NCBI GenBank assembly: GCA_016209085.1
Contig: JACQWV010000017.1
Coordinates: forward strand, 1-60,339
Direction: 5' to 3'
DNA from: Elusimicrobiota bacterium
GTDB lineage: Bacteria; Elusimicrobiota; Elusimicrobia; Elusimicrobiales; UBA9959
Length of the DNA stretch: 60,339 nucleotides
Shown: in pieces, positions 33,556 through 53,945 of the stretch
How positions within the stretch are numbered: position 1 is the stretch's first letter
Layout: every line of letters begins with the position of its first letter
Translations under genes and position numbers: made by a program
Notes under the pieces: model-generated
What the model saw: the letters and a program-made list of their open reading frames with translations, nothing else
Databases searched by the model: none
What the model was told of the DNA's origin: nothing

Positions 33556-34416
33556 ATGCCGCAATTTTTAGGCGCAGTTTGCATTTTTCTTGCTTTTTTG
33601 AATTTTTCGCTGCAAGCTGGAACCTGGCAGGTCAAGAAAACCCCTCATTTTGAGATTTATCACGAATCCGACTGGACCCCCCATTCCATTGCCATTGAAC
33701 TTGAGAGAATATATGGCCAGCTGCGCATGAACCTTTCCATGTTTGCGCCGTGGATGGTGACTGAAAAAACCAGAATATACATTCACCGGAACAAGAATTC
33801 CTACCTGAACGGCGAATTCAATCCTCCTGCCTGGTCAAAGGGTCTTGCTTTTTTTGATAAAAAGGCGGTTGTGGTCTATGATTCCGGCGATCTGGTGAAA
33901 CTCAGAGCCGTCATAACCCATGAATTGACTCACCTTTACTTTGAAAGTTTCTATGCCGAAAGTCTTAAATTTCCTCCCCAATGGCTTAACGAGGGTCTGG
34001 CAGTGCTCATGGAGGACGCTTCCTATTCCCGCGGCAAAGGCCCGTGGAGCGCGGCTCTCAAATACGCTCCTGAGGAAAGATTTGAAAATTTTGAGGTTTT
34101 TTCCAGAGTTGATTTGCGGAACATGAGAAACGAATCAGTCCAGAAAATCGGGGACTGGTACCTTCACGCATTCGGCATTGCCGGCTTTCTATACGGCCGA
34201 ACAAAGAGAATCCAGTTTAAAAATTTCTGCGTTATGAACAGGAAAGGGGAGACTCTTGAAAAATCCCTGTGGGAAGCCTACAGGTACAAAAATCCGAGGC
34301 ATTTTGAAGATGAATGGCGCAAATGGCTCAGAACCTACGGGGCAAAAGAGACGGACAAATTTTCAAGCGGTTTCTCTTCAGCGAGTTTTGAATTTATCCC
34401 CTTCAAAAGCAAATGA
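33556..34416 (+). CDS. Exported clan MA (gluzincin-like) metallopeptidase domain protein
   Basis: Signal peptide; TPHFEIY; HELTH..WLNEGLA. Confidence 0.8.
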   Translation: MPQFLGAVCIFLAFLNFSLQAGTWQVKKTPHFEIYHESDWTPHSIAIELERIYGQLRMNLSMFAPWMVTEKTRIYIHRNKNSYLNGEFNPPAWSKGLAFFDKKAVVVYDSGDLVKLRAVITHELTHLYFESFYAESLKFPPQWLNEGLAVLMEDASYSRGKGPWSAALKYAPEERFENFEVFSRVDLRNMRNESVQKIGDWYLHAFGIAGFLYGRTKRIQFKNFCVMNRKGETLEKSLWEAYRYKNPRHFEDEWRKWLRTYGAKETDKFSSGFSSASFEFIPFKSK

Positions 34417-37248
34417 CAAAAACGGTCCCGTGCTGGTTTGAGACGATTTCATTATGTCCGGAGCATGCCCTGAAAAAGTCAGATACCCGCCCTTATCGCC
34501 TCCTTCGGGCCCGAGTTCAATAATCCAGTCGGAGGAGCCTATTACATCCAGATTGTGTTCAATTACGACTACCGTATTTCCCCTGTCAACTAATGTGTGA
34601 AGAACTTTAAGAAGTTTTTCCACGTCCGCGAAATGCAGGCCGGTCGTGGGCTCGTCAAGCAGGTATAATGTCCTGCCCGCGCTTTTTTTTGCAAGCTGGT
34701 CCGCTAATTTAAGTCTCTGCGCTTCTCCGCCTGAAAGGGTGGTTCCGCTCTGTCCGAGTTTTATGTAGTCAAGCCCCACTTCCAGCATGGTCTTGAGGAT
34801 TTTTAATATGTGAGGCATGTCCCTGAAAAGTCCGGCGGCTTCCGCCGCGGACATGTCAAGAATTTCCGCTATGTTTTTGCCTTTGAATTTTATTTCAAGA
34901 GTGTCTTCGTTAAACCGCCTGCCGCGGCACGCTTCGCACGTGACATAGACGTCCGGCAGGAACTGCATCTGTATTTTTATGTTGCCGTCTCCCTGGCAGG
35001 ATTCGCACCTGCCTCCTTTGACGTTGAAAGAAAATCTTCCCGGTTTGTAGCCCCTGCGTTTTGACTCGGGCAGCATTGAAAAGAGCTGCCGTATGTGAGT
35101 AAATACGCCGGTATAAGTGGCGGGATTTGACCTCGGAGTTCTTCCTATGGGCGATTGGTCCGCTATTATCACCTTGTCTATGTAATCCGTTCCTGTCACG
35201 GAGCGGAATCTGCCGGGCTGCTCTTTTGAGTTATGCAGTTTCCGGGCAAGGCCTTTGTAAATGATTTCGTAAAGAAGAGTGGATTTTCCCGAACCTGAAA
35301 CGCCGCAAAGAGCGGTGAAAAGTCCTATGGGTATTTTAACGTCAAGGTTTTTCAGATTAAACTGGGACGCTTTTTTAAATTCAATGAATTTTTTTGGGGA
35401 GGCTTTTGAGCCGGGTTTAAACCGAGGATTTGGACTTTTTAAAAATTTTCCGGTCAGAGAACGCTCGTTTTTGATTATTGCGTCAAGCGGACCCTGCGCA
35501 ACCACTTCTCCGCCGTTCAATCCGGCTCCGGGCCCCAGGTCTATGATATAATCAGAGTTCCTGATGACCGCTTCGTCATGCTCAACGACTATCAGGGTAT
35601 TTCCAATATCCCTGAGCGCCTTTAAAGTATTTATGAGTCTTGCATTGTCTTTCTGATGAAGCCCCATCGTGGGCTCGTCCAGAACGTATAAAACGCCGGT
35701 CAATCCGGAACCTATCTGCGTGGCAAGATGTATTCTCTGCGCCTCTCCTCCTGAAAGCGTTTCTGATTTTCTGTCCAGGGCAATGTACGACAAACCTACG
35801 TCAACCAGAAATTTCAGCCTTGAATTTATTTCTTTAAGAATCAGTTTCGCTATTTGCCTTTCCTTCTCGTCAATGTCCATCCCGGCTGCGAATTCCATTA
35901 TGCCGGATATCGGCATTGAGGAGATTTCTACGATGTTTTTCCCGCATACAAAAACGCTCAATCCCTCCTTTTTAAGTCTTTTTCCCCGGCAGGCCGGACA
36001 GGTCCTTTCCCTGATAAAACGCCTGTAAATTTCTTCTTTTACGTATGAGGATTCGGTTTCCCTGTATCTTCTTTCCATGTTTTTTATAACACCCTCAAAT
36101 CCGCTCGCCGGATCTCCGTAAAGCAGGAAGTCTCTTTTTTCTTTGGGGATGTCTTTCCATGGAGACTCTATGGAAATTGAATGCCCGGCGCATACGTTTT
36201 TAATCATGCCCGCATAATATCCTGACCATGAATTTTTCCATCTGTGGGTTCTCGTGGTAATGGGGTCTGCCCATGCTTTAATTGCGCCTTCTGAGATGGT
36301 CGTTGACGGGTCCGGAACCACAAGTTCCTCGTCTATTTCCATTTTGATTCCGAGCCCGCCGCACTCTGCGCACGCGCCGTAAGGAGAATTAAACGAAAAC
36401 AGTCTCGGCTCAAGTTCTGGAAAGCCCCTGCCGCAGCCCGGACACGCGGTTTTTTCGCTGTATGCCAGCCTGCGGGCGGCCGGAACAGGGCGGCATTGTC
36501 CGCAATTGGTGCCGCGAGCGCTGCGAGCGGCCTTTTCCTGGATTTCAAGCAAAAGCCGGCCGTCTGATTTGCCTAACGCCAGTTCAACAGAATCCGTCAG
36601 CCGTTCTTTCTGGGTCTCTGATGCCGTTAACTCGTCCACGAAGAGGTCTATGTCGTGCTTGACGTAGCGTTTTAAAGCCGGGACAGAATCCATTCCATGC
36701 AGTTTCCCGTCCACCCGGACTTTTACAAACCCGCTTTTTTTGAGCCGGGTGAACAATTCTTCATAAGTTCCGGTTCTTCCGCTTACCAGGGGGGAGAATA
36801 TTTTTATTTTTTTGTTCTTGTGTCTGGAAATCATGTCTGAGACAATCTGCTGAACCGACCATGATTTGACCGGAAGCCGGCATTCAGGGCAGGCGGGCAT
36901 GCCTATTCTGGCAAAGAGAAGACGCAGGTAGTCGTAAATTTCGGTAACCGTCCCGACGGTGGAGCGGGGGTTTCTGGAAGGAGCGTGCTGTTGTATGGCT
37001 ATGGAGGGAGACAGGCCCTCAATATAATCCACATCCGGCTTATCCATCTGTTCAAGAAACTGCCTGGCGTAAGCCGAAAGGCTTTCCACGTATCTTCTCT
37101 GGCCTTCCGCGTAAATAGTGTCAAAGGCGAGGCTGGATTTTCCCGAACCGGACAAGCCCGTTATCACAACCAGTTTGTTTTTCGGGATTTCAAGGTTTAT
37201 GTTTTTGAGATTATGCTGTCTCGCCCCGGCGATTTTAATAGTATCCAT
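34378..37248 (-). CDS. uvrA: Excinuclease ABC subunit A
   Basis: [23 protein letters not shown], two LSGGEAQR motifs, Zn fingers. Confidence 0.98.
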
Positions 37249-37250
37249 AG

Positions 37251-37340
37251 AACCAGTCACAAGTTGCAAGTTTCAAGTCACAAGTTCTTTCTCTTCAGTT
37301 TCCGTTACTTGTGACATGCGACCTGTGACTTGTGACCTGC
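37251..37340. repeat. Inverted TCACAAG heptamer arrays (also 33463-33527, 16960-16991, 25736-25770, 44661-44693)
   Basis: 24-bp AAGTTGCAAGTTTCAAGTCACAAG identical at 16960, 33473 and 37261. Confidence 0.85.
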
Positions 37341-42520: not shown

Positions 42521-43240
42521 CTACATTTCAAAATCCCAGCCTAAATAGAGCTCTCTGGCTTTTTCGTCGTTGAGCAGCTTGTCAGCAGCGCCTTCAATCA
42601 ATATCCTTCCCTGGTATATGAGATAAGAACGGTCCGTGACCGAGAGGGTTTCTCTCACATTGTGGTCCGTTATCAGGATTCCTATGGCTTTGTCTTTCAG
42701 CATTCTTATTATTTTTTTGAGATCGCTTACTGTTATGGGGTCTATGCCTGCGAAAGGTTCGTCAAGAAGTATTATTCTGGGTTCGTTTATCATTACCCTG
42801 GCCGCTTCAAGCCTTCTCTTTTCTCCGCCTGAAAGGGTCCATGCCTTTTGTTCGCGCAGGTTCCACAGCCCGAATTCCTCAAGAAGACTTCTGGTCTTTT
42901 CCTGAATGGCGTTCCTGTCTTTCAGGATTCTTTCAAGTATGGCTATAAGGTTTTCTTCCACGGTTAAACCGGTAAAAACAGTCGGCTCCTGCGCGAGATA
43001 ACCTATGCCCATTCTCGCGCGCTTATACATCTGTGTTTTTGAAATATCCTGTCCGTCAAGGAAAACCCTGCCTGAATCCGGGGAGATGAAACCCATCAGC
43101 ATGTGGAATGTGGTCGTTTTTCCGGCTCCGTTGGGGCCTAAAAGACCGCAGATTTCGCCGGATGCGATTTCAAGGGAAATCCCGTCCACTACTCTCTTCC
43201 TGCCGTAATTTTTTATCAATGATTCAGAATGGAGTTTCAT
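42521..43240 (-). CDS. lptB: LPS export ABC ATPase
   Basis: GPNGAGKTT, GYLAQE, LSGGE, DEPFAGIDP, ITDHNVRETL. Confidence 0.96.
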   Translation of the reverse strand: MKLHSESLIKNYGRKRVVDGISLEIASGEICGLLGPNGAGKTTTFHMLMGFISPDSGRVFLDGQDISKTQMYKRARMGIGYLAQEPTVFTGLTVEENLIAILERILKDRNAIQEKTRSLLEEFGLWNLREQKAWTLSGGEKRRLEAARVMINEPRIILLDEPFAGIDPITVSDLKKIIRMLKDKAIGILITDHNVRETLSVTDRSYLIYQGRILIEGAADKLLNDEKARELYLGWDFEM

Positions 43241-44157
43241 GGTTTAACCGAATGAATCCAGCCGCGCACGTTGCCGGATACGCTTAAGTTTCCCGTATTT
43301 CTGAAAAATTTTATTTGTTCTGCGATGATGGTAAAATCATAACCTTCTTTTATTCCGGTCACTGACGGAGTTGAGCCGTAGAGAAGAAATGAGGAATCGG
43401 CGTTCTGGTAAAAGGCATTTTCGGATGCGGCTATTATCCTGTCGTTTTCAAGAGAGAAATTTCCCATGAAATTTATTTCGGATTTAATCCCGTCCGCTTC
43501 TATTTTCCCGCATTTTGTGCGCAGCGTCTGGCCGTCGGCATAGCCTTCGGCGCCTGGGGCGGCGGTGGCGATGTTCCGGTCGGGCGACATAGCGCCCGAC
43601 ACTTGCCTGCCCCCATGCTTTGTTTCTGCAAGAAACTGTGGGGGATGAGCCGGAGGCTCGTTGTTCCGGCCGTCCTTTGAAGCGTAAGAAAGAAGAAGAA
43701 GCCTTTGTTCCTGCGGCAGGAGAACTGCCTTCTTTGATTCTTCAAAATAGTTTCCGCTGTCGGCCTGTTTTATTTCCATGGTTGAACCGTCGTCAAAAAA
43801 ACGCAGGCAGTAAATATTTTTCTGGAAATTCCATTCTTTTTTTGCCTTGTCGTAAACTGCAAAATCCGCTTTGAGATTGTAGTAAGGGTTTTTGAAAGAA
43901 ACGTCGCCGTCAAATATTTCAAGACGGTTTATCCTGTCTATTTTCCAGTTTCTGCTTCTTACCACCGAGCCCATTAAAAAATCATCGGATGTTTGGGCAT
44001 ATAAAGGAAACAGAAAACATAAAATGTAGCTGCAGAGCGAAGCTCTGCCATAAAGATAAGGAAGTAGTAAACAGAATACCCGCCGCCCCAACCCCGCGGG
44101 TTGGAACTTCAACCCGCGGGGTTGAAGAGGTAGTAGCTGCAGAACTTGCTTTGCCAT
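43237..44157 (-). CDS. lptA: LptA/OstA-like beta-jellyroll protein with in-frame repeat insertions
   Basis: Between lptC and lptB; FDGDVSF..LKAD, IIAEQIKF..VSGNVRG; start uncertain. Confidence 0.6.
   Translation of the reverse strand: MAKQVLQLLPLQPRGLKFQPAGLGRRVFCLLLPYLYGRASLCSYILCFLFPLYAQTSDDFLMGSVVRSRNWKIDRINRLEIFDGDVSFKNPYYNLKADFAVYDKAKKEWNFQKNIYCLRFFDDGSTMEIKQADSGNYFEESKKAVLLPQEQRLLLLSYASKDGRNNEPPAHPPQFLAETKHGGRQVSGAMSPDRNIATAAPGAEGYADGQTLRTKCGKIEADGIKSEINFMGNFSLENDRIIAASENAFYQNADSSFLLYGSTPSVTGIKEGYDFTIIAEQIKFFRNTGNLSVSGNVRGWIHSVKP
43530..43674. repeat. Modular palindromic element inserted in frame in lptA
   Basis: GGCCGTC direct repeats 138 bp apart; modules shared with 52198-52347. 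Confidence 0.85.
44026..44048 (+). repeat. GTAG REP; identical hairpin at 21005-21021, degenerate copy at 44133-44154
   Basis: GTAG-CT-GCAGAGC-GAA-GCTCTGC. Confidence 0.75.
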
Positions 44158-44164
44158 AATGTTG

Positions 44165-44716
44165 CTATTTTGTGGCGGATATTTTTGTTTCCTGATTTTG
44201 TATCTCAATCTGCGTAAGGTCGGGGTTGGCCATGAATCCCCTTCCTTTTGTCACGGTTTCTCCCTTGTAAATGGTTATTTCTTCGTCGGTCCAGATTTTA
44301 TTTTCAGCTGACTTAAACAGGATTGTCTTTGTGCCGAGCCGCATATTTTCGGTTCTGGACACGATTGACACGTTTCCGCTCAGTTCAGCGTCTTTGGTTG
44401 AAAGATTCAAAAATCCGGAATCGGAGCTCATTTCGGAAGTTATTGCCCCTGCCGCGTAAAGTTTCAGTTTAGGATGCGCAAGCCTGATTTTGCCGTCTTT
44501 TTCGTTTAAGTTCGCTCCTGCGGAAACAAGGCTCCATTGGTCCTTATTGTCTTTTGATTTAAACAATTCAAGGTCTTTTATTAAATTCACCGGTTCCTGC
44601 GACTCCTTGTTCCGTGAGCTCTGCGAACTGCCGGAACATGAAACCAATAAAAGAAGAAAACAAGTTACAAGACACAAGTTACAAGTCACAAGTGAAAATT
44701 TAGAGAAGCCCTTCAT
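44165..44716 (-). CDS. lptC: LPS export periplasmic protein LptC
   Basis: WSLVS..A, LSGNVSI, IWTDEEITI..GRGF; lipobox-like LVSC. Confidence 0.85.
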   Translation of the reverse strand: MKGFSKFSLVTCNLCLVTCFLLLLVSCSGSSQSSRNKESQEPVNLIKDLELFKSKDNKDQWSLVSAGANLNEKDGKIRLAHPKLKLYAAGAITSEMSSDSGFLNLSTKDAELSGNVSIVSRTENMRLGTKTILFKSAENKIWTDEEITIYKGETVTKGRGFMANPDLTQIEIQNQETKISATK

Positions 44717-45692
44717 TAAGCAGGTCTCTTTCGTCTATTATGCCGACCGGTTTTTTTGTTTCAGGGTCAATTACAGGGATATTGTCTATTTTCATCCTGG
44801 ACATTATTCTGGCCGCTTCTGCGGCCATGGTATCGGGATGGACCGTTATCGGGTTCCGGGTCATTACGGAAGTTATTTTCTTGTTGAGGCTGGTTTCGCC
44901 CTTTTGCAGATACCTGCGCAGGTCTCCGTCGGTAAAGAAGCCTATCAGCCTGCCTCTGCCGTCTGTCACCGAAGCGGCGCCGAGTCTGGTCTTTGTCATC
45001 ACATACAGCGCGTCTTTAATCAGGCAGGAATTTTTTATCACCGGATTTTCTTTGCCCTTGTGCATCAGGTCTTTCACTTTCGTGTTAAGCAGTTTTCCAA
45101 GGGAGCCGCCCGGATGAAGCCGGGCTAATTCGGCTTTGTCAAAATTTTTTATTTTCATCAGGGTAATCGCAATGGCGTCTCCCAGAGAGAGCATCGCGGC
45201 GGTTGAAGAAGTGGGCACGATATTGAAAGGACATGCTTCCTTGCGGACATTGAGATTGAGGGTTATGTCCGAATGTTTCGCTAATTTTGAATTGAGGTTG
45301 TTCGTGATTGAAATTATCCTGTGTCCTCTGGATTTGAAATACTGAAGGAGCAGGGCGGTTTCATGCGTTTCTCCGGAGTAGGAAAGAGCCAGCGCCACGT
45401 CTTTACGGCCGACCATCCCCATGTCTCCATGAAGGCATTCAACGGGATGGAGATAAATGCTCGGAGTTCCGGTTGAAGAAAGGGTTGCCGCTATCTTTCT
45501 GCCTATGATTCCGGATTTTCCGATGCCTACCACCACGACTCTGCCTGTAGAGTCCAGAATCATTTTTACGGCATTGGCGAAATTCCTGTTCAGACCTTTT
45601 GACAGGCTTGCGAGCGCCGCCATCTCCCTGTTGATGACTTCTTTGCCGCATCTGATTAACAAATGTTTTGAATTATCCCTTTTGTTTTTCAT
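44700..45692 (-). CDS. kdsD: Arabinose-5-phosphate isomerase (KpsF/GutQ, SIS plus CBS)
   Basis: GIGKSGIIGRKIAATLSSTGTP, HGDMG, PTSST, HPGGSLG. Confidence 0.95.
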   Translation of the reverse strand: MKNKRDNSKHLLIRCGKEVINREMAALASLSKGLNRNFANAVKMILDSTGRVVVVGIGKSGIIGRKIAATLSSTGTPSIYLHPVECLHGDMGMVGRKDVALALSYSGETHETALLLQYFKSRGHRIISITNNLNSKLAKHSDITLNLNVRKEACPFNIVPTSSTAAMLSLGDAIAITLMKIKNFDKAELARLHPGGSLGKLLNTKVKDLMHKGKENPVIKNSCLIKDALYVMTKTRLGAASVTDGRGRLIGFFTDGDLRRYLQKGETSLNKKITSVMTRNPITVHPDTMAAEAARIMSRMKIDNIPVIDPETKKPVGIIDERDLLNEGLL

Positions 45693-45952
45693 GGCGGAGG
45701 AACTTTATGCGGGTGGAGCCAGGGCGTCATTTCATCCGGGATTTTCCTGATGTGATACGGGGGGGGGAGCTTGCGCAGGAAATAGCTCGCAATGAAGAAA
45801 ACCGCAATCAGAATTAAATATATCCAGGAAAGGGTTTTTAAATGCCATTTCCAGGTCGGGAACCACGCGGGCGGAAGGGTCAGGTCGTTTCCGCATTTTT
45901 TGCAGAATTTAAAGTTGGCTCTGTTTTCGTATCCGCAATTAGGACATTTCAT
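45689..45952 (-). CDS. Zinc-ribbon membrane protein
   Basis: CPNCG..FCKKCG followed by one TM helix. Confidence 0.75.
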   Translation of the reverse strand: MKCPNCGYENRANFKFCKKCGNDLTLPPAWFPTWKWHLKTLSWIYLILIAVFFIASYFLRKLPPPYHIRKIPDEMTPWLHPHKVPPP

Positions 45953-45998
45953 AAAATCAGTGATTAGTGGTCAGTGTATAGTGGTTAGTTCTTTTCCA

Positions 45999-46853
45999 TC
46001 ACTTGTCACTCGCCACTAACCACTTGCCACTGTCCTTTGCCAGCGTATCTATATGATTTAGCATATTGACTGCGTCGCATACAAGACTGAGTTTCAGGGA
46101 ATTGGGGCCGTCTGACAATGCTTTTGAGGGATCCGGATGGGTTTCAAAGAAAATGCCGGCTATTTTCAGGATGCAGGCGGCTTTGGCAAGAGGAAGGGCA
46201 AATTTTACGTCTCCTCCGGTAATATTGCCGAGTCCCGCCGGTCTTTGAACAGAGTGGGTGCAGTCAAAAATTACGGGATATCCGGTCTCTTTCATTATTT
46301 CTATGGAGCGCATGTCAACGACAAGATTGTTGTACCCGAAACACGTGCCTCTTTCAGTCAGGAGTATTGACCGGTTGCCTCTGGATTCTATCTTCTTCAC
46401 CGCATTTTGAATTTCCCATGGCGACATGAACTGGCCCTTTTTTATGTTTACTGTTTTGCCCGTATCCGCGGCTGCTGCCAGAAGGTCAGTCTGTCTTGAG
46501 AGAAAAGCAGGTATCTGGATGATATCCGCGCATTTGGAAACCATCGGCGCCTGCCATGTTTCATGCACGTCAATAAGAACGGGGATTGCGAGTTTTCTTT
46601 TAATCTGCGCAGCGATGTCCAGGCTTTTTTTCATCCCTATTCCCCTGAAGGATTTGTGGGAAGTCCTGTTGGCTTTGTCAAAAGAAGCCTTCAGCGCAAA
46701 GGGGGTTTTAAGCCTTGAAAAAACGGTCTTAAGTTTTGAGGCAATGGCCGTAAATCCCTTTTCGGATTCAATCACGCACGGGCCAGCTATGTAGACGAGT
46801 CTGGAGTCGTTGGAAAACGTGATGCCGCCGGCTTTTACTTTTTTTGGGGTCAT
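45999..46853 (-). CDS. kdsA: KDO8P synthase
   Basis: [39 protein letters not shown]. Confidence 0.97.
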
Positions 46854-48451
46854 AATGTCCCGTTTTTATATTTAAGGCTTGCGGAAATAAATTCCCTGAA
46901 AAGAGGATGCGGATTAAGCGGCGTTGATTTGAATTCAGGATGAAACTGGACTCCCATGAACCACTGCCGGCTTTTAAGTTCTATTATTTCAGGCAGGTTT
47001 TTTTCTTTATATATTCCGCTGACGACAAGGCCGCGTTTGGAGCAGGCTTTCGCGTATTTGGGATTGAATTCATATCTATGCCTGTGCCTTTCGGATATAA
47101 GACCTAAGGAGTAAATGTCTTTCGCCAGGGAATTGGGTTTTATGCGGCACGGATAGGAGCCCAGCCTCATGGTCCCGCCCTTGTGTTTTATTTTTTTCTG
47201 TTCCGGCATTATGTCCACCACGGGATGAGGAGTATTGGGCTTGAATTCCACGGAATGAGCGTTTTTGAGCCCGGCAACGTTCCTGGCAAATTCTATCGCC
47301 GCGCACTGCATTCCAAGACATATCCCGAGAAAAGGAACGCGGTTTTCCCTGGCAAATTTTACGGTTTCTATTTTTCCTTCAATGCCTCTTTCGCCGAACC
47401 CTCCCGGCACTATTATGCCGTGCATCGTTGAAAGAGTCTCCTTGAATCCGCCGTCTTCCACGTCCAGAAAATTTATTTCAGCGTGCGTGTTATTCGCAAC
47501 GGCTCCATGGTTTATCGCTTCCACCAGAGACTTGTAAGAGTCCTTCAGTTTGGTGTATTTTCCGGCAATGGCTATTTTGACCGGTTCGGTTTTCATGCAG
47601 TTCTTGAGTTTTTCAACGTAATTTATCCACTCCTCAAAATCCCATCTCTTGCTTCTCAGACGCAGGAGCATCATGATTTGTTCGTCAATTCCCTGTCTTT
47701 TGAGAATATTCGGCACGTTGTATATTGAAAACGTGTCCGGGGATTCAATCACGGCTTCCTGCGGCACGCTGCAAAAAAGAGCTATCTTGTTTTTCATCTC
47801 CCTGCTCAGGGGTTTTTCCGTTCTGCAGATTATTATGTCCGGGTCTATGCCTATTTCCCTGAGTTTATGAACCGAATGCTGGGTCGGTTTTGTTTTGAGC
47901 TCGTCGCTGGAAGAAAGATAAGGAACCAGGGTTACGTGAATGTAAATCACGTCGCTGCGGGTTTTATCCGGCTTCATTTGTCTGGCGGCTTCAAGAAAAG
48001 GCAGGCTTTCTATGTCGCCCACGGTGCCGCCTATCTCTATTATCACTATGTCAAAATCTTTTCCCGTCTCTAAAAACCTCCGTTTTATTTCGTCGGTTAC
48101 ATGAGGGATTACCTGCACCGTCTGACCGAGATATTCGCCCTGTCGTTCTTTGGATATTACGCTCTGATAAATTTTCCCCGCGGTGACATTATTGTCCCTG
48201 GTGGTGCTGATTTCCAGAAATCGTTCGTAATATCCGAGGTCAAGGTCGGTTTCCGCTCCGTCATCAGTGACAAAGACCTCGCCGTGCTGGAAAGGAGCCA
48301 TGGTGCCTGCGTCCACATTTATGTAGGGGTCGCATTTTATGATTGTGACGGAGAGGCCGTGCGCCTTGAGAAGCCTTCCTATGGATGCGGCGCAGATTCC
48401 CTTTCCGAGGGAGCTTACGACGCCGCCGGTGATAAAAATATATTTGGGCAT
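46850..48451 (-). CDS. pyrG: CTP synthase
   Basis: [38 protein letters not shown]. Confidence 0.98.
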
Positions 48452-48464
48452 AATAAACAGCAAT

Positions 48465-48553
48465 GAATAGTGATTAAGTAAATAATTATTAAGTGATTAA
48501 GTAACAGCGATTTAAGGAACTTAATCGCTAAATCACTTAATCTCTTAATCACT
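48465..48553. repeat. Inverted TTAAGTGA-type octamer arrays (also 29890-29952, 42475-42512, 53955-54080)
   Basis: ttaagtgattaagt ... acttaatcgctaaatcacttaatctcttaatcact. Confidence 0.75.
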
Positions 48554-49298
48554 GTTGTATATATTTTATTAAATATTGCTCCGCTTTCTTAATATCCTGC
48601 CTGACGTCTATTGCCGGGCCGAGTCTTGGGACTTTTACAGCCCCGATGCAGAGTCCCGCTTCAAGAGCGCGCAGCTGTTCAAGTCTTTCAAGAGATTCAA
48701 GAACGCTTTCAGGCAAAGAAACGAATTTCTTAAGAGCGTCGTACCTGTAAACGTAAAATCCGCAGTGTTTATACCAGGGAATTTTCATGGAAACAGCCGA
48801 TAAGGGATGATGAAAGGGAATCGGGATTCTGGAGAAATAAACGGCCCTGGAGTTTTTTCCCAGAGCCACTTTTACCGTATTGGGATTAATGAGGTCTTTT
48901 TTATCATAGATAGGGCTGCACGCTGTAGTTATGTGAAATTGCGGATTTTTTTTCAGCAGTTCAAACGCTTTGATGAGCGTACCGGGCTCCATAAAAGGTT
49001 CGTCAGCCTGGTAGTTGATTATGAATTCTCTTTTGTTTCTGAGCGCGGTTTCAAAAACCCTGTCCGTGCCTGATTTGCATTTTGGGCTTGTCAGGCAGGT
49101 CTCGGCGCCTATTGTTTTTGCAAAATGCAGGACTTTTTCATGTTCGGTCGCTATTATTACCCGCCCCAGTCCGGCGCGGAGAGCGGATTCGTAACACCAT
49201 TGCAGAACGGGTTTCCCGTTCAATTTATGAAGGACTTTTCCCGGGAACCTTTCCGAAGCGTACCTGGCAGGGATTACGATTAAACAGTTGCTTTGCAT
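48549..49298 (-). CDS. kdsB: CMP-Kdo synthetase
   Basis: IPARYASERFPGK, SGTDR, YFSR, LEQLRALE. Confidence 0.95.
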   Translation of the reverse strand: MQSNCLIVIPARYASERFPGKVLHKLNGKPVLQWCYESALRAGLGRVIIATEHEKVLHFAKTIGAETCLTSPKCKSGTDRVFETALRNKREFIINYQADEPFMEPGTLIKAFELLKKNPQFHITTACSPIYDKKDLINPNTVKVALGKNSRAVYFSRIPIPFHHPLSAVSMKIPWYKHCGFYVYRYDALKKFVSLPESVLESLERLEQLRALEAGLCIGAVKVPRLGPAIDVRQDIKKAEQYLIKYIQQ

Positions 49299-50296
49299 GA
49301 TTTTATGGCTTCAAGCAGTTCGGTCCTGGTAACCGAGGCGGTTCCGAGTTTGCCAACAACAATGCCGGCCGCTAAATTTGAAAGTACTGCAGATTCAAGG
49401 ATTGAAGCGCCTGAAGCTAAAGAAAGCGTGAAGACAGATATGACCGTGTCTCCCGCGCCGGTAACGTCAAACACTTCCTTTGCGTTGGTGGGGATGTGGG
49501 TGATTTTTGCGCATGGACATGATTTATCAAGAAGAGTCATGCCGTGTTCCCCGCGGGTAATAAGCAGGGATCTGCATTTGAGAGCCGCAAGTATCCTGCG
49601 GCCGGTTTTTTCAATATCCTCGTCTCCTGTTTTTTCAATCATGCCCATCCCCTGATGCGCTTCAGCCGCGTTCGGGGTCATACATGTCGCGTGTTTGTAT
49701 TTTTTAAAATGCTCGGGTTTCGGATCCACGCAGACCGGGATTTTCATTTTAACGCAGAGTCTTATCGCAGAATCTATGACGGCAGGAGTGAGAGTCCCCT
49801 TGCCGTAATCGGATAAAATCAATGCCCGGCAGCCCATGGAAAGTTTCTGTTTGAGATTATTTATGAGTTTCAGTTCAAATTTACTGCCCGCATTAATGTC
49901 GGGCTCTCTGTCGAATCTCACAATCTGCTGGTGTTCCGCTATGATTCTGGTTTTTTCAATGGCGGTTATTTCAGGGGTTGATATTATTCCTGAAACATCC
50001 GTTCCTGTTTCAACCAGTAAACCGAGGAGCCGTTTGGAGGTCTCGTTTACGCCTGTCAGGGATATGACCGAGGCCTTGGCGTCCAGAGACAGAAGATTGC
50101 GGGCCACGTTCCCGCAGCCGCCCGGCGAGAGCGTTTCCTCTTTCACTTTTACCACAGGAACCGGCGCTTCCGGAGAAATTCTTTTGACAGAGCCTCTGAT
50201 ATATCTATCCAGCATAAGGTCGCCCAGTACCGCTATAGCGGTACTGGAAAATTTCTCCGTTATTTCCGCCAGCCGCATGATATTTATTTTATTCAT
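49280..50296 (-). CDS. rfaE1: D-glycero-manno-heptose-7-phosphate kinase (HldE kinase domain, stand-alone)
   Basis: RISPEAPVPVV, SDYGKG, DVTGAGDTV, VVGKLGT. Confidence 0.92.
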   Translation of the reverse strand: MNKINIMRLAEITEKFSSTAIAVLGDLMLDRYIRGSVKRISPEAPVPVVKVKEETLSPGGCGNVARNLLSLDAKASVISLTGVNETSKRLLGLLVETGTDVSGIISTPEITAIEKTRIIAEHQQIVRFDREPDINAGSKFELKLINNLKQKLSMGCRALILSDYGKGTLTPAVIDSAIRLCVKMKIPVCVDPKPEHFKKYKHATCMTPNAAEAHQGMGMIEKTGDEDIEKTGRRILAALKCRSLLITRGEHGMTLLDKSCPCAKITHIPTNAKEVFDVTGAGDTVISVFTLSLASGASILESAVLSNLAAGIVVGKLGTASVTRTELLEAIKSCKATV

Positions 50297-50311
50297 AGAG
50301 ATTATTATATA

Positions 50312-51148
50312 TTATTGAAAACTTCGTTTTGCCAGTTTTGCCGTTACAGAGCCGATGAATATTTCGGCTTTGATCATCACCGGGATTTTTGCCTCGTCGT
50401 CAGTCAGCCAGACGTACAACTTGGCATTTTTCTTGGAGATAAAAATCCCTTCCTCAAGAATCCGCGGTTCTATCAGAACGCATCTGACTTTGCCTGCCGG
50501 TGTTTTTATCTTTTCCCTTTTGTGGACCTTGACGATAAGAGTCCAGTTCTTTTTCGTGTTTACCGGCATGGAAAACTCGGAGCCTTCGTCAAGGTTCTTT
50601 GTCCTTACTGCATAGAGGCTTGTAAGCACGTCGTTGACGGGTCCGGGGATAAGACCGGAGCTTTCGGTTATCTCGCCGTCTTTGTTTTTTCTTTGCGCCG
50701 TGAAAGAAGAAGAGGATATGTCATATAAAACCCATTCCGCATAAATATACTTTCCTTCTTTTATGTTTTTATAATACCCGTATGAATACAGGGTTTCCGA
50801 GTCCATCCATGCCTCGTTTAAATCCCTGACTTGATAGAAATTGTCTATAAACGAAGAAGAACGGGCCTCTGAAATAAAATGATAAGCGGGTCTTGTGCCT
50901 GCCAAAACAATCCTGTCGGAATAGAGATAAGACTGGCCGACATTTATGAAACCCCAGTATATTTCATAATCAAGCTTTTCTTTGTGCCACGGTTTTGTGG
51001 AAAAATTAATTTCCCCAGTAATTTCCGGAAAAGAGGATAAAGGACAGGAAAACGCAGAATTTAAATTTTCGGCATAAACGGAAGAAGAAATTAAAAATGA
51101 GAAAATAAAACTGATTACCGATTTCTGATTTATGATTTCTAATTTCAT
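50312..51148 (-). CDS. DUF3108-like exported protein
   Basis: EKLDYEIYWG, FYQVRD, EKIKTPAG, VWLTDD..IPV. Confidence 0.75.
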   Translation of the reverse strand: MKLEIINQKSVISFIFSFLISSSVYAENLNSAFSCPLSSFPEITGEINFSTKPWHKEKLDYEIYWGFINVGQSYLYSDRIVLAGTRPAYHFISEARSSSFIDNFYQVRDLNEAWMDSETLYSYGYYKNIKEGKYIYAEWVLYDISSSSFTAQRKNKDGEITESSGLIPGPVNDVLTSLYAVRTKNLDEGSEFSMPVNTKKNWTLIVKVHKREKIKTPAGKVRCVLIEPRILEEGIFISKKNAKLYVWLTDDEAKIPVMIKAEIFIGSVTAKLAKRSFQ

Positions 51149-51173
51149 TTAATTTCTAATTACTGGTTACTGA

Positions 51174-51752
51174 TTACTGCTGTTTTATTATCCATCTTGC
51201 CGCCTGCAGCAGCGTGTCTGCAACGTGAGCCGCAAGATTCTTTGCGGCTTTAATTTCATGAGAGCCGTGCCCGGTTAACAAGAGTATTGATTTTAAGTTG
51301 AATTTCCGCGCCAGTATCATATCAGTCGTCTTATCTCCTACCAGATAAGAACTCTTTATGTCAAGATTATGGTTTTTAAGCGCCTCTTTGACCAGGCCCG
51401 GTTCGGGCTTTCTGCACCGGCATCCGTCCCGCGGTCCGTGCGGACACATATAAATACCGTCTATTTTCACGCCTTTTTTTTCCAGATAATCCAGTATTTT
51501 AAGATTAACCAGTATTGCTTTTTTCAACGTCATCAATTTTCTTGCCACGGCCGATTGATTGGTAAGTATTATGAGCTGGAAACCGGATTCCTGCAGTTTT
51601 ATGAGAGCGTCCGGCGCGGTTTTGTAGATTCTGATGCCGCTTGTTTTTGTAAGATAACGGCCTTTCCTGTCAAGGTTGATTGTGCCGTCCCTGTCTAAAA
51701 AAACAGCCGGTTTTTTTGTTTTATTATCCGATTTCCTCGAATAAACAAGCAT
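51174..51752 (-). CDS. gmhB: D,D-heptose-1,7-bisphosphate phosphatase
   Basis: FLDRDGTIN, TNQS, CPH..C.CRKP, GDK..D. Confidence 0.93.
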   Translation of the reverse strand: MLVYSRKSDNKTKKPAVFLDRDGTINLDRKGRYLTKTSGIRIYKTAPDALIKLQESGFQLIILTNQSAVARKLMTLKKAILVNLKILDYLEKKGVKIDGIYMCPHGPRDGCRCRKPEPGLVKEALKNHNLDIKSSYLVGDKTTDMILARKFNLKSILLLTGHGSHEIKAAKNLAAHVADTLLQAARWIIKQQ

Positions 51753-51784
51753 TTTTATTCGCTGTCTATATGCACTGCGGTCTC

Positions 51785-53026
51785 TTATTTCTTGTTGTTC
51801 GCTATTTGCTCTGTTATTGCATTCATCAGAATTCTGTAGCCATCTAACAGGAATTGAATCTTCGCTGAAAATATGTAAACTTCGGTTTTAAAAATCTCGC
51901 GCCAATTTTCCGGGAATCTGACAAAATCTTTGTGCGTGGTTATCAGCGGCAGATAATGTCTTGCGGTTTCTATCGCCGTCATTTCTTCTACGGTGAAGAA
52001 GTGATGGTCAGGATAACGCCAGGCCTGCCTGAGGCTGATTTTTAGGGATTTGAGGTTTTCTTCAAAAGACCCTGGGTCTCCTATGCCGGAAATGACTGCG
52101 GCTTCCTTTTTGAATTCCGCCGGGTGCATGCCTTTCATGGTAAACGCGTCTATGAAGCATTCAGGCGAATATACGGTTTCAAGAATCGGCGCGTTTTGGT
52201 CGTCGGCATAGCCTCCGACACCTGTGGGTCGGGTGGCATAGCGCCCGACACTTGATGAGGTCGTCGGCATAGCCTCCGACACCTGTGGCCGCAGTGCGGC
52301 TGTTCCGCCAGAGGCTCGTTGTTCCGCCGCAGTGCGGCTGTTCCGGTTGAATTTCACGATTTCCTGTTTAAGGGTATCCAGATTCTTTTGGCTGGTTCTT
52401 TCTACATGCGTCAATATTATGATGTCGGCCGTTTTCAGCCTGTATTTCGGCTCCCTCAGGTTTCCCATGGGGAGGAGTTTTTCATTTTCAAACGGCATGC
52501 CGGCGTTTATGAGAATTATTTTTAGGTCTTTTTTTATGGAAAAATTCTGAAATCCGTCGTCAAGCAGAAGCACGTCGCTTTTAAAGAGATTCAGGGCAAG
52601 TTTTCCTGTTTTGATTCTGTCCGGTCCGACTATTACCGGTATGGAATGCGGATTGAGGAGATTGTACAGCATCATGGCTTCATCGCCGGTGTCCCTGATG
52701 CTGAACGGGCCCGGCCCGCACAGCGCGACGGGAGACGCGGAACTTCGGGTTCTTTTATATCCCCTGATGAGGACCGCAGGGTTATGGCCGGATTTTTTCA
52801 GTTCTATGGCTGTCAGAATTGCCATAGATGTTTTTCCTGTTCCGCCGGTTGAGATATTTCCGAAACAGATTACCGGAACCCCAGAAGAGGCTGGTTTTAA
52901 AAATTCATTGTCATAGAGAAAATATCTGCATTTGAGAGCGAGCAGATACAAAAAAGAGAGAAACTGAAGAAGAAGTCTTCCGTATTTGCATTCCTTAAGT
53001 TCGTTTCTGAGTTTTTCAAGAGACAT
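51785..53026 (-). CDS. lpxK: Tetraacyldisaccharide 4'-kinase with 49-aa repeat-derived insertion
   Basis: GNISTGGTGKT, RGYK, GDEA, LDDGFQ, LLPMGNLREP, YPDHH, TTHKD. Confidence 0.95.
   Translation of the reverse strand: MSLEKLRNELKECKYGRLLLQFLSFLYLLALKCRYFLYDNEFLKPASSGVPVICFGNISTGGTGKTSMAILTAIELKKSGHNPAVLIRGYKRTRSSASPVALCGPGPFSIRDTGDEAMMLYNLLNPHSIPVIVGPDRIKTGKLALNLFKSDVLLLDDGFQNFSIKKDLKIILINAGMPFENEKLLPMGNLREPKYRLKTADIIILTHVERTSQKNLDTLKQEIVKFNRNSRTAAEQRASGGTAALRPQVSEAMPTTSSSVGRYATRPTGVGGYADDQNAPILETVYSPECFIDAFTMKGMHPAEFKKEAAVISGIGDPGSFEENLKSLKISLRQAWRYPDHHFFTVEEMTAIETARHYLPLITTHKDFVRFPENWREIFKTEVYIFSAKIQFLLDGYRILMNAITEQIANNKK
52198..52347. repeat. Modular palindromic element inserted in frame in lpxK
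   Basis: 30-bp unit x2 (52198-52227, 52259-52288) and 20-bp unit x2 (52288-52307, 52326-52345). Confidence 0.88.
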
Positions 53027-53945
53027 TGGTAACGTGTTTTTCCAATTCTTCAAATACATGAATTGCCGAGAGTTTATTCAAATCGCCCTGTATGTATTGA
53101 TGAATTTTATCCGGGGGTCCCCATGATTGGGGAGATTCTATGTGGTTGTAAATAGTAAACGTGGGAGTATTCTGGCTTACTGCAATGTGCATGGGCCCTG
53201 AAGTCCCTCCGACATGCAATCCGGAATTATGCATAAGAGCGGCCAGATCAAGGATGTCAAAATCGGGAGTGATTATGTGATTTTTACGGCAAAGAGCCAT
53301 GACATTCTCCACGTAGGAAAATTCTCCCGGCCCCCGCAGGAATATGACTTTAGCCCGGTGTTCGGCGGAGAGCAGATCGGCCAGTTCCGCAAATTTAGGC
53401 CCTGACCACCTCCGTTCCGGCGTCGAAGAAGTCAAGTGAAACGTAACGATAAAATCTTTTCCGGGATCAAGTCCGTTTTTTTCAAAGAAAGAGGAAACTT
53501 TAGCGGCGTTCTCGCTGCCGTATTTAAGGTCAATGGATATCCCGTCGTAATTTATCCCCAGGGGATCCAGCAGCTGGAGCCGGTCGTAGATAGTATAACC
53601 CTTTTTCTTGAATCTCGGCATAAGATTGTAAAAGAGAAAACCGTGAGGCCTCCAGAAAGCGAGTCTCTTTTGCGCTCCTGAGAAACGCGCGTATAAGCCG
53701 GATACGGAGGAGAGCATGTAGTCTATCACCAGGTCAAATTTTCTGCGTCTTATTTCCCAGAAAGCGGTTTCGCCTCTTATCAGGATTCCCGAAAGATATG
53801 GATTGTATTTGAGCGCTTTTTCACAGCGCTTTTTGGTAAAAAAGTAGATTTCAACGTCTACGCGGTTTTTTTTGATGGCACGCACTAGGGGGGTGGTCAG
53901 CAGCACGTCTCCGATGCCTTTAAAAACTATAATCAGTATTTTCAT
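53016..53945 (-). CDS. Glycosyltransferase family 9 (heptosyltransferase-like)
   Basis: IGDVLLTTP, RRW..FAEL, SGPMHIA. Confidence 0.9.
   Translation of the reverse strand: MKILIIVFKGIGDVLLTTPLVRAIKKNRVDVEIYFFTKKRCEKALKYNPYLSGILIRGETAFWEIRRRKFDLVIDYMLSSVSGLYARFSGAQKRLAFWRPHGFLFYNLMPRFKKKGYTIYDRLQLLDPLGINYDGISIDLKYGSENAAKVSSFFEKNGLDPGKDFIVTFHLTSSTPERRWSGPKFAELADLLSAEHRAKVIFLRGPGEFSYVENVMALCRKNHIITPDFDILDLAALMHNSGLHVGGTSGPMHIAVSQNTPTFTIYNHIESPQSWGPPDKIHQYIQGDLNKLSAIHVFEELEKHVTNVS

Follow-up and report, generated by a model that had tools for sequence, protein, structure and literature searches.

Two inserts in a lipopolysaccharide gene cluster

The window analysed here is a stretch of 60,339 nt from an Elusimicrobiota bacterium (contig JACQWV010000017.1 of assembly GCA_016209085.1), and is one contig (C42) of a metagenome-assembled genome (MAG), here called G000, of 2.35 Mb in 140 contigs, 98% complete and with 44.8% G+C. 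On its minus strand lies a lipopolysaccharide (LPS) gene cluster that contains genes for an ABC ATPase (42521-43240; PF00005), an LptA-like open reading frame (ORF; 43237..44208, 323 codons from a TTG, the true start being probably further in), lptC (44165-44716; PF06835, E 1.2e-17), unnamed ORFs, and lpxK, the gene for tetraacyldisaccharide 4'-kinase (51785..53059; PF02606, E 3.9e-71, in two match stretches). Two of these genes carry in-frame inserts made of short hairpin units: the LptA-like ORF has one of 138 nt (46 codons; 43531..43668) and lpxK one of 147 nt (49 codons; 52199..52345). Both inserts are read on the plus strand, antisense to the gene, and both are G+C islands (0.67 and 0.66 per 100-nt window, against a genome mean of 0.448). 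No second lpxK copy was found in G000 with the LpxK query used.

A first-pass annotation, made from the sequence alone, had proposed that a modular palindromic element invades these two genes in frame. As it stated, on the coding strand both inserts start with CGGAACA (R-N) and end with GGCTATGCCGACG (G-Y-A-D). The modules it named were found at their positions (GTCGGGCGACATAGCGCCCGACACTTG at 43579, GTCGGGTGGCATAGCGCCCGACACTTG at 52228, and GAGGCTCGTTGTTCCG at 43653 and 52311), as were the internal duplicates of 30 nt (52198/52259) and 20 nt (52288/52326). It had also described short direct repeats flanking both inserts. At the LptA-like insert these are real, a 10-nt TC(T/C)GGCCGTC repeated 138 nt apart, but at LpxK the repeat 147 nt apart is, by our own reading, only GGT, which is trivial, and a listing of repeats for this insert contained no flanking one.

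The LpxK insert, which encodes RNSRTAAEQRASGGTAALRPQVSEAMPTTSSSVGRYATRPTGVGGYADD, appears as a clean 49-column gap in 11 of 11 aligned orthologues, between ..KFN and QNAPILE... In 30 of 31 related genomes LpxK is matched as two pieces (query 1-~239 and ~289-418) that abut in the relatives' DNA, and the 119 other LpxK homologues listed, from a search of 5.8 billion proteins, are 340-396 aa long. A single-protein search of public genome contigs with LpxK returned no close relatives; the alignment query did yield relatives. The 147-nt insert itself had no match in plasmid and phage collections.

The 46-aa stretch of the LptA-like protein (RNNEPP...EGYAD) is absent from eight of nine aligned orthologues, so that at neither locus did these orthologues hold an equivalent sequence. 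The ninth (L017, in genome G010) has a different, unrelated stretch of about 24 aa (..SAAPEGAPREGQRQAGA..) at the same loop, which may be prone to repeated landing or expansion. The LptA-like protein had no Pfam match, even when both halves were searched separately, and its profile matched LptA in the PDB only at E 0.68. Its predicted structure is all-beta, with LptA (2r1a/2r19), LptH, LptC and the LptD N-domain as the best Foldseek matches; this predicted fold, together with the position of the gene between lptC and the ABC ATPase gene, supports its assignment as LptA-like.

AlphaFold (AF2) models of both proteins, built on 10-row alignments, gave predicted local distance difference test (pLDDT) values below 50 only in the inserts and the N-termini, and both sides of each insert were modelled with confidence. 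The low values cover residues 244-287 of LpxK, between a helix (224-249) and a strand (292-304), and residues 122-164 of the LptA-like model, between confident strands.

The assembly was compared with Logan contigs of four groundwater metagenome runs, which come from one study and are possibly the source sample. The LptA-like insert was spanned without differences by contigs of all four DNA runs. The LpxK insert was entered from both sides, with contigs ending at 52223 and starting at 52316, and its inner order rests on the MAG assembly and the intact frame. No contig of the four runs skipped either insert, although contigs drop rare variants, so that rare excision could escape this comparison. 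Around 44068-44181 (LptA-like codons 10-47, overlapping the end of lptC), contig depth was about four times that of the neighbouring sequence and protein-level matches were found on contigs C49, C36 and C82, a pattern that suggests a further repeat family where lptC meets lptA.

Anatomy of the units and their place in genes

The inserts are composed of units of 48 nt (U1) and 51 nt (U2), and a third unit, U3, is also 51 nt long. Each unit consists of two different stem-loops in direct order with a conserved tail after each: the first is followed by ..CACCTG(T/G)GG or ..CACTTGATGAG, the second by ..(C/G)TTGTTCCG. In U1, hairpin A (G-Y-C-G..GGC-ATA-GCC..C-G-R-C) is followed by the linker ACCTG(T/G)GG, hairpin B (a 4-bp stem with a 3-nt loop) and the tail CTGTTCCG. 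U2 has a hairpin of 7-8 bp, then (C)ACTTGATGAG and a second, small hairpin (GAGCC-AGA-GGCTC), and ends in the tail GTTGTTCCG; U3 follows the plan of U1 and U2, and its end is identical to that of U1. The sequence CTTGATGAG in U2 suggested a hammerhead core, a candidate that was rejected because no other part of the core is present and Rfam was silent: a search of 43400-52500 at E up to 1 gave 0 matches, with no ribozyme, intron or other family.

Left (L) and right (R) halves of the units, as read on the plus strand of the window, allow the larger forms to be parsed. Whole units either follow one another head-to-tail or are nested in a resident copy, at the hinge that joins its two hairpins, giving composites of 99, 129, 138 and 147 nt, and the L and R types mirror each other wherever both halves were parsed. 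The LpxK insert is triple-nested, L1[L2[L1 R1]R2]R1, with L1 at 52199-52227, L2 at 52228-52259, an inner U1 at 52260-52307, R2 at 52308-52326 and R1 at 52327-52345. The LptA-like insert is a tandem of two units. The first is a divergent U1 of 48 nt (43531..43578, parsed as L1 R1 in anti orientation, phase 0), with hairpin A, the linker GCCTGGGG, hairpin B and the tail GATGTTCCG, and encodes the peptide RNIATAAPGAEGYADG. The second (43579..43668) is a 51-nt U2 unit with a 39-nt extra hairpin (43606-43644) in its linker, ACTTG^ATGAG; this part contains an 8-bp stem, GTCGGGCG/CGCCCGAC, and is predicted to fold into three separate hairpins as single-stranded DNA (ssDNA). The 39-nt piece is unique in the genome (1 match at up to 6 substitutions). 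A 30-nt extra hairpin inside hairpin A occurs in five genome copies, and by our own reading of the sequences U2 or U1 also lies reversed inside U3. The annotation had described the elements as shuffled, mix-and-match modules; what the parsed copies display is an ordered tandem or mirror-nested stacking of whole 48/51-nt units.

The stems are maintained by compensatory changes. In hairpin B, pair 2-10 is CG in 50 copies and GC in 27, with one unpaired, and pair 3-9 is GC in 57 and CG in 17, with four unpaired; column shuffling would leave 0.54 and 0.63 of the copies paired, respectively. Pair 2-20 of hairpin A is CG in 18 and TA in 15, with none unpaired. Such double changes point to selection on the element, since host proteins would gain nothing from DNA hairpins. 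Folded as ssDNA, the elements gave z-scores of -1.9 to -3.8 relative to shuffled sequences.

Modules L1, R1 and R2 have 50, 55 and 48 occurrences in G000 (at up to 3-4 substitutions), compared with 0-0.3 for shuffled motifs, which bears out the annotation's view of a modular, hairpin-built repeat family. A looser grammar found 128 R modules, against 3 in the reversed genome. These fall into 98 runs, to which 32 U3 copies are added (controls, 0-3). Among the runs, 35 are of the form L1 R1, 22 of the form L1 L2 R2 R1 and 12 of the form L2 R2; 12 are other stacked or partly parsed forms, one is L1 L1 R1, balanced by count only, and in 18 the parser saw no L half, some of these being chance or degenerate matches.

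Two 99-nt subfamilies differ, by our own reading, by -1 and +1 indels that cancel. Some Logan contigs have one extra G after 52325. The other 99-nt subfamily carries this G, and reads derived from it fit the observation better than a variant of lpxK would. A similar extra G is also seen at 48487. A fragment resembling hairpin A of an L1 variant lies in the 5' part of lptC (44616..44631, minus strand; blastn-short, unit library against the window), flanked by TGTTCCG and CGGAACA, and may be an element remnant in the LptC signal or linker region.

The third copy in the window is a 51-nt U3 unit (36481..36531, minus strand) that adds 17 codons in frame to uvrA (34378-37269, minus strand). By our arithmetic it occupies residues ~247-263, between the Pfam domains UvrA_inter (138-244) and UvrA_DNA-bind (313-414). 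Elsewhere in G000, U3 forms perfect head-to-tail arrays of 3, 3 and 2 units within single ORFs (contigs C47, C108 and C138), adding 34-51 residues. Two further hosts were chosen from those identified by Pfam in a random draw of 20. Alanine racemase (Alr) has an exact 16-aa gap in seven of seven relatives, with highly conserved flanks, and its copy is a clean insertion between the N- and C-domains with no flank homology; a SucC-like ligase has a 16-17-aa gap in seven of seven relatives. The host genes are unrelated to one another, and include racemases, a ligase, MltA, QueG, PLD and TPR proteins, and others.

If the copies are translated with their hosts, then their lengths and reading frames might be expected to show it. 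The lengths of 69 balanced elements were 48 nt (33 elements), 51 nt (nine), 99 nt (19), 123 nt (one) and 129 nt (one), the remaining six (27, 27, 29, 50, 58 and 97 nt) being mis-parsed or degenerate, and 65 of the 69 are divisible by three. A copy was taken to lie in a gene when it was spanned by an open frame of at least 150 aa. U1/U2 clusters lie within such frames in 95 of 99 cases, where random windows do so in 86.8% (48 nt) or 84.0% (99 nt) of draws (binomial P = 0.002 and 0.0002, respectively), and U3 copies in 30 of 32. Four other repeat families of G000, including repetitive extragenic palindromes (REPs) of the GTAG type, gave 7/39, 2/33, 5/32 and 4/23 (18/127). Thus the family is not excluded from genes at all, unlike other repeat families of the same genome. 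G000 is very repeat-rich (1560 canonical 16-mers with at least 8 copies, about 119 crude families), and several GTAGGGG-type REP families are present, mostly outside long open frames.

The 48-nt units were found antisense to the gene in frames 0 (11 copies), 1 (one) and 2 (seven) and in the same sense in frames 0 (seven) and 1 (seven), and none was found in the single frame that carries a TAG. U3 is open in all six frames by our own reading of the sequence, and was found in all six. The 'fixed ends and frame' noted in the two LPS genes are therefore not a general property. When each of the 69 parsed elements was deleted virtually, one deletion gained a long frame, that of the degenerate 50-nt copy beside a small gene on contig C36 that resembles those of REP-associated tyrosine transposases (RAYTs). 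None of the 69 was a well-parsed copy of a length divisible by three that broke a gene or added a stop in the frame used. Across the hosts the inserts add 16-49 aa, with unrelated peptides in different frames, which is not what an intein or self-splicing intron would give.

Ends, candidate enzymes and distribution among genomes

The elements have no terminal inverted repeats (TIRs); one end reads GYCG.. and the other ..GTTCCG, and the two are not related by inversion. Where flanking repeats are present, they copy the element's own ends and not host sequence, and so do not amount to a target-site duplication (TSD). In 28 of 69 U1/U2 elements at least 3 nt of the left flank are identical to the element's 3' end (..CCG), where random sites give 1.7%, and these direct repeats reach 10-11 nt. 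Left flanks ending in CCG were counted by us at 24 of 32 U3 copies, including the tandem arrays of 2-3 units, which fits head-to-tail arrays.

Elements of the IS200/IS605 insertion sequence (IS) group typically have no TIR and no TSD, carry hairpins near both ends, are asymmetric and insert 3' of a short motif. The units described here similarly have hairpins near both ends and lack TIR and TSD, and the genome contains Y1_Tnp genes: there are 11 matches in G000, 10 of them over the cut-off (one only with neighbours in frame). They differ from IS200/IS605 in that no Y1 gene with these ends was seen and no TnpB (PF07282) was found in the 98%-complete MAG; IS110 (PF01548) was likewise not found there. 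The ..CCG preference is partial, with many clean exceptions. Nesting at the hinge is, to our knowledge, not a described property of IS200/IS605 elements. The small RAYT-like Y1 genes carry other, GTAG-type REPs; there are four in G000, two of which (on C24 and C36) are visibly flanked by GTAG REPs. The long Y1_Tnp-like gene at 2-874 of the window (plus strand, about 300 aa, truncated where the contig begins) is bounded by inverted repeats of its own, by eye GGGGACGTTGTTTAG and CTAAACAACGTCCCC, in which, perhaps by chance, the 7-mer CGTTGTT of the R2 tail recurs; the same gene ends contigs C35 and C105 and is therefore multi-copy. No parent IS with the same ends was seen in the Y1 flanks inspected; this did not extend to a dedicated search for genes enclosed by L and R, and in a fragmented MAG a parent may be unassembled.

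By DNA search, element DNA was found in five of 31 relatives, including G000. Of 401 Elusimicrobiota genomes sampled, five contained an exact core pattern, and these belong to a single family; the backwards control gave none. The same architecture is present in a genome of another genus (G001), and the element was also found in 38 metagenome contigs, whose G+C ranges over 44-68%. A composite with U1 reversed inside a U3-like unit was seen at four places (L195, L200, L201 and L202) in G228 and G192, both genomes of another genus, and this composite itself seems to move.

Interpretation and relation to known repeats

The observations are best explained by a selfish, mobile family of intragenic repeats that is translated through, a reading to which we assign a probability of about 0.78. 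The units would be non-autonomous: an enzyme acting in trans, most likely a transposase of the HUH/Y1 type, would mobilise them in the form of single-stranded hairpin DNA. They would land at almost any position, though favouring those that follow ..CCG and their own hinge, and with about 86% of the genome in open frames most insertions would strike genes. Only frame-neutral, stop-free copies in tolerant loops would then persist, and transcription and translation of the host gene would turn these into disordered loops of 16-49 residues, in LpxK, the LptA-like protein and UvrA among others. Translation is suggested by the lengths divisible by three, the avoidance of the stop-bearing frame and the lack of broken genes, all of which would be needless if the inserts were spliced out, bypassed or excised. 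Active, structure-dependent mobility in trans is suggested by the covariation of the stems, the rule at the ends, the near-identical dispersed copies and the patchy spread. As the mobilising enzyme, a Y1/HUH-type transposase is the leading guess, with odds well short of even; its single-strand mechanism would agree with the hairpins, with the partial target rule and with the absence of both TIR and TSD.

Several points weigh against this reading. Translation of the inserts is an inference, if a most likely one. No empty site was seen at the DNA level, the closest LpxK homologue listed being 44% identical, and the exact junctions and apparent lack of target duplication depend on the element consensus and protein alignments. 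Since copies share ancestry, the 65 of 69 lengths divisible by three overstate the number of independent events; by our own reading, independent support comes from the unit types (48, 51, 51 and 30 nt) and the compensated indels of the 99-nt subfamilies. G+C-rich sequence is also stop-poor by composition alone. In G001 only three of eight copies examined are in frames of at least 150 aa, and the 10 of 11 copies in frame in G228 and G192 carry little weight, as these genomes have high G+C and either strand often holds long frames. The CCG preference is partial, and fails at hinge insertions and at clean sites such as that in alanine racemase. Among the flanks of the 11 Y1_Tnp matches, no inspected Y1 gene was flanked by L or R modules, and Y1 genes occur in 21 of 31 relatives irrespective of the element, so there is no discriminating association.

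The annotation had also raised, speculatively, removal of the inserts at the RNA or DNA level. If RNA processing or splicing, ribosomal bypass or somatic DNA excision took them out before the protein is made, the host proteins would be wild-type, which would suit elements that are strongly structured and host genes that are essential in model bacteria (lpxK and lptA are essential in E. coli). Bypass inserts, such as those of phage T4 gene 60 and the mitochondrial 'byp' elements of a yeast, are likewise short G+C-rich hairpins of about 30-55 nt in essential coding sequences; however, they break the frame and are skipped by the ribosome, and the intact frame and avoided stops of the present family speak instead for plain translation. 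Removal before translation is on these grounds very improbable: the divisibility by three, the absence of copies from the TAG-bearing frame and the compensating indels would be unneeded, the elements lie in genes in both orientations, which an RNA signal would not tolerate, the LPS region had no Rfam, ribozyme or intron match, no contig joined across an insert, and the AF2 models put the inserts in loops where extra residues are plausible. An assembly artefact, in which repeats were collapsed or mis-joined into both genes, is barely credible. It is true that the MAG is in 140 contigs and that k-mer contigs break inside the LpxK insert, but the LptA-like insert was bridged in four runs, both LpxK junctions were covered, host frames are open across about 130 copies, and the same units occur in other assemblies and metagenomes.

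It is also improbable that the units are modules kept by host selection, either as mRNA hairpins that tune translation or stability or as flexible linker peptides. Conservation of the hairpins by covariation would agree with such a role, as would the copies that lie between domains (the N- and C-domains of Alr, UvrA_inter and UvrA_DNA-bind, and the halves of the LptA-like protein). Yet the same units occur in unrelated genes, in both orientations and up to six frames with unrelated peptides; orthologues in 7-11 related genera do without the inserts, the distribution is patchy (5/401 genomes), and near-identical copies suggest recent spread. The family could, alternatively, be real and translated but owe its spread to hairpin-driven template switching, replication slippage or gene conversion, with no transposase involved. 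We consider this unlikely, with template switching as a live alternative, although the tandem arrays of 2-3 identical U3 units, the microhomology between flanks and element ends (with direct repeats of up to 10-11 nt) and the mirror-nested stacks would all be in keeping with it, and a cognate transposase was not found. Clean insertions without flank homology, as in alanine racemase, speak against it, as do the roughly 130 dispersed copies in unrelated sequence contexts, since slippage leaves new loci unexplained; several hairpin sub-lineages have, moreover, each kept their pairing, as if a protein reads the structure.

The closest parallels to a selfish, translated-through family are found among known palindromic repeats, as the annotation had suggested. 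In the portion of PMC10969869 drawn on here, Rickettsia palindromic elements (RPEs) are described as about 150 bp long, with nearly half in ORFs, and the likeness is one of palindromic repeats inserted in frame in unrelated, often housekeeping genes, translated, at sites compatible with the fold, and with no transposase of their own. The present units share with RPEs the in-frame insertion in unrelated ORFs and the absence from orthologues. They differ in size and family, with units of 48/51 nt (a separation from RPEs made on their description), in location (95/99 clusters and 30/32 U3 copies in open frames, as against about half), in host phylum (Elusimicrobiota), and in their two different hairpins in direct order, their tails and their tandem or mirror-nested stacking.

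For GTAG/CGTC REPs, the part of Di Nocera et al. 2013 (PMC3733652) used for comparison describes mostly intergenic repeats with a 5' GTAG or CGTC tag that pair mainly head-to-head; those of the CGTC type have 8-9-bp stems, 4-5-nt loops, a CCA tail and no dedicated transposase. It also reports intragenic REPs in several species, mostly dimers or grouped repeats encoding 20-30 aa, with uvrA and uvrB interrupted, in other phyla. The present family is similar in its short G+C-rich stem-loops, its tens to hundreds of copies and its intragenic copies, one of them in uvrA. U1-U3 have no GTAG, flank none of the Y1 genes inspected apart from the degenerate 50-nt unit near the one on C36, and are overwhelmingly intragenic, and the GTAG-type REPs of G000 are separate families. 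CGTC occurs only in GYCGTCGG variants of hairpin A, so that the analogy drawn by the annotation holds functionally while the tag does not generally apply; stems are of 4+3 or 7-8 bp, loops and tails differ, and the two unlike hairpins stand head-to-tail. The lack of TIR and TSD also separates U1-U3 from MITEs, or miniature transposable elements with inverted repeats.

Relative to RPEs and REPs, the new features are the units of 16-17 codons, the near-total intragenic habit and the ordered mirror-nesting. No published description of the family was found in the literature searched (main texts; Additional file 3 of PMC3733652 may bear on the intragenic fraction), nor was anything relevant found on small dispersed cyanobacterial repeats or on in-frame hairpin repeats of Elusimicrobia. 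More tentatively, the family might represent a distinct class of mobile DNA whose niche is inside genes, with two-hairpin units that are stop-poor and divisible by three, element-level selection for frame invisibility, targeting of its own 3' end and hinge that leads to tandem and mirror-nested growth, and an enzyme other than a classical REP-flanked RAYT.

Small bacterial repeats such as REPs and MITEs are normally confined to intergenic DNA, RPEs being the striking exception. Here a family with units one third the size of RPEs lives almost wholly in genes, with about 130 copies in 2.35 Mb, or an estimated one gene in twenty; its hosts include lpxK, the lptA-like gene, uvrA, alr and sucC, and none appears broken. 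Inserts of this kind also affect annotation, in that they lengthen proteins and break up domain matches, as seen in the two-stretch Pfam match of LpxK. The ordered nesting and the targeting of its own ends offer handles for finding the mobilising enzyme. The family provides a natural experiment on the insertion tolerance of folded proteins, on the evolution of frame-neutrality in selfish DNA and on the origin of disordered loops, and if it is indeed a distinct class, it would supply the proteomes of one Elusimicrobiota family quite generally with new disordered loops, also in envelope and repair proteins that are essential.

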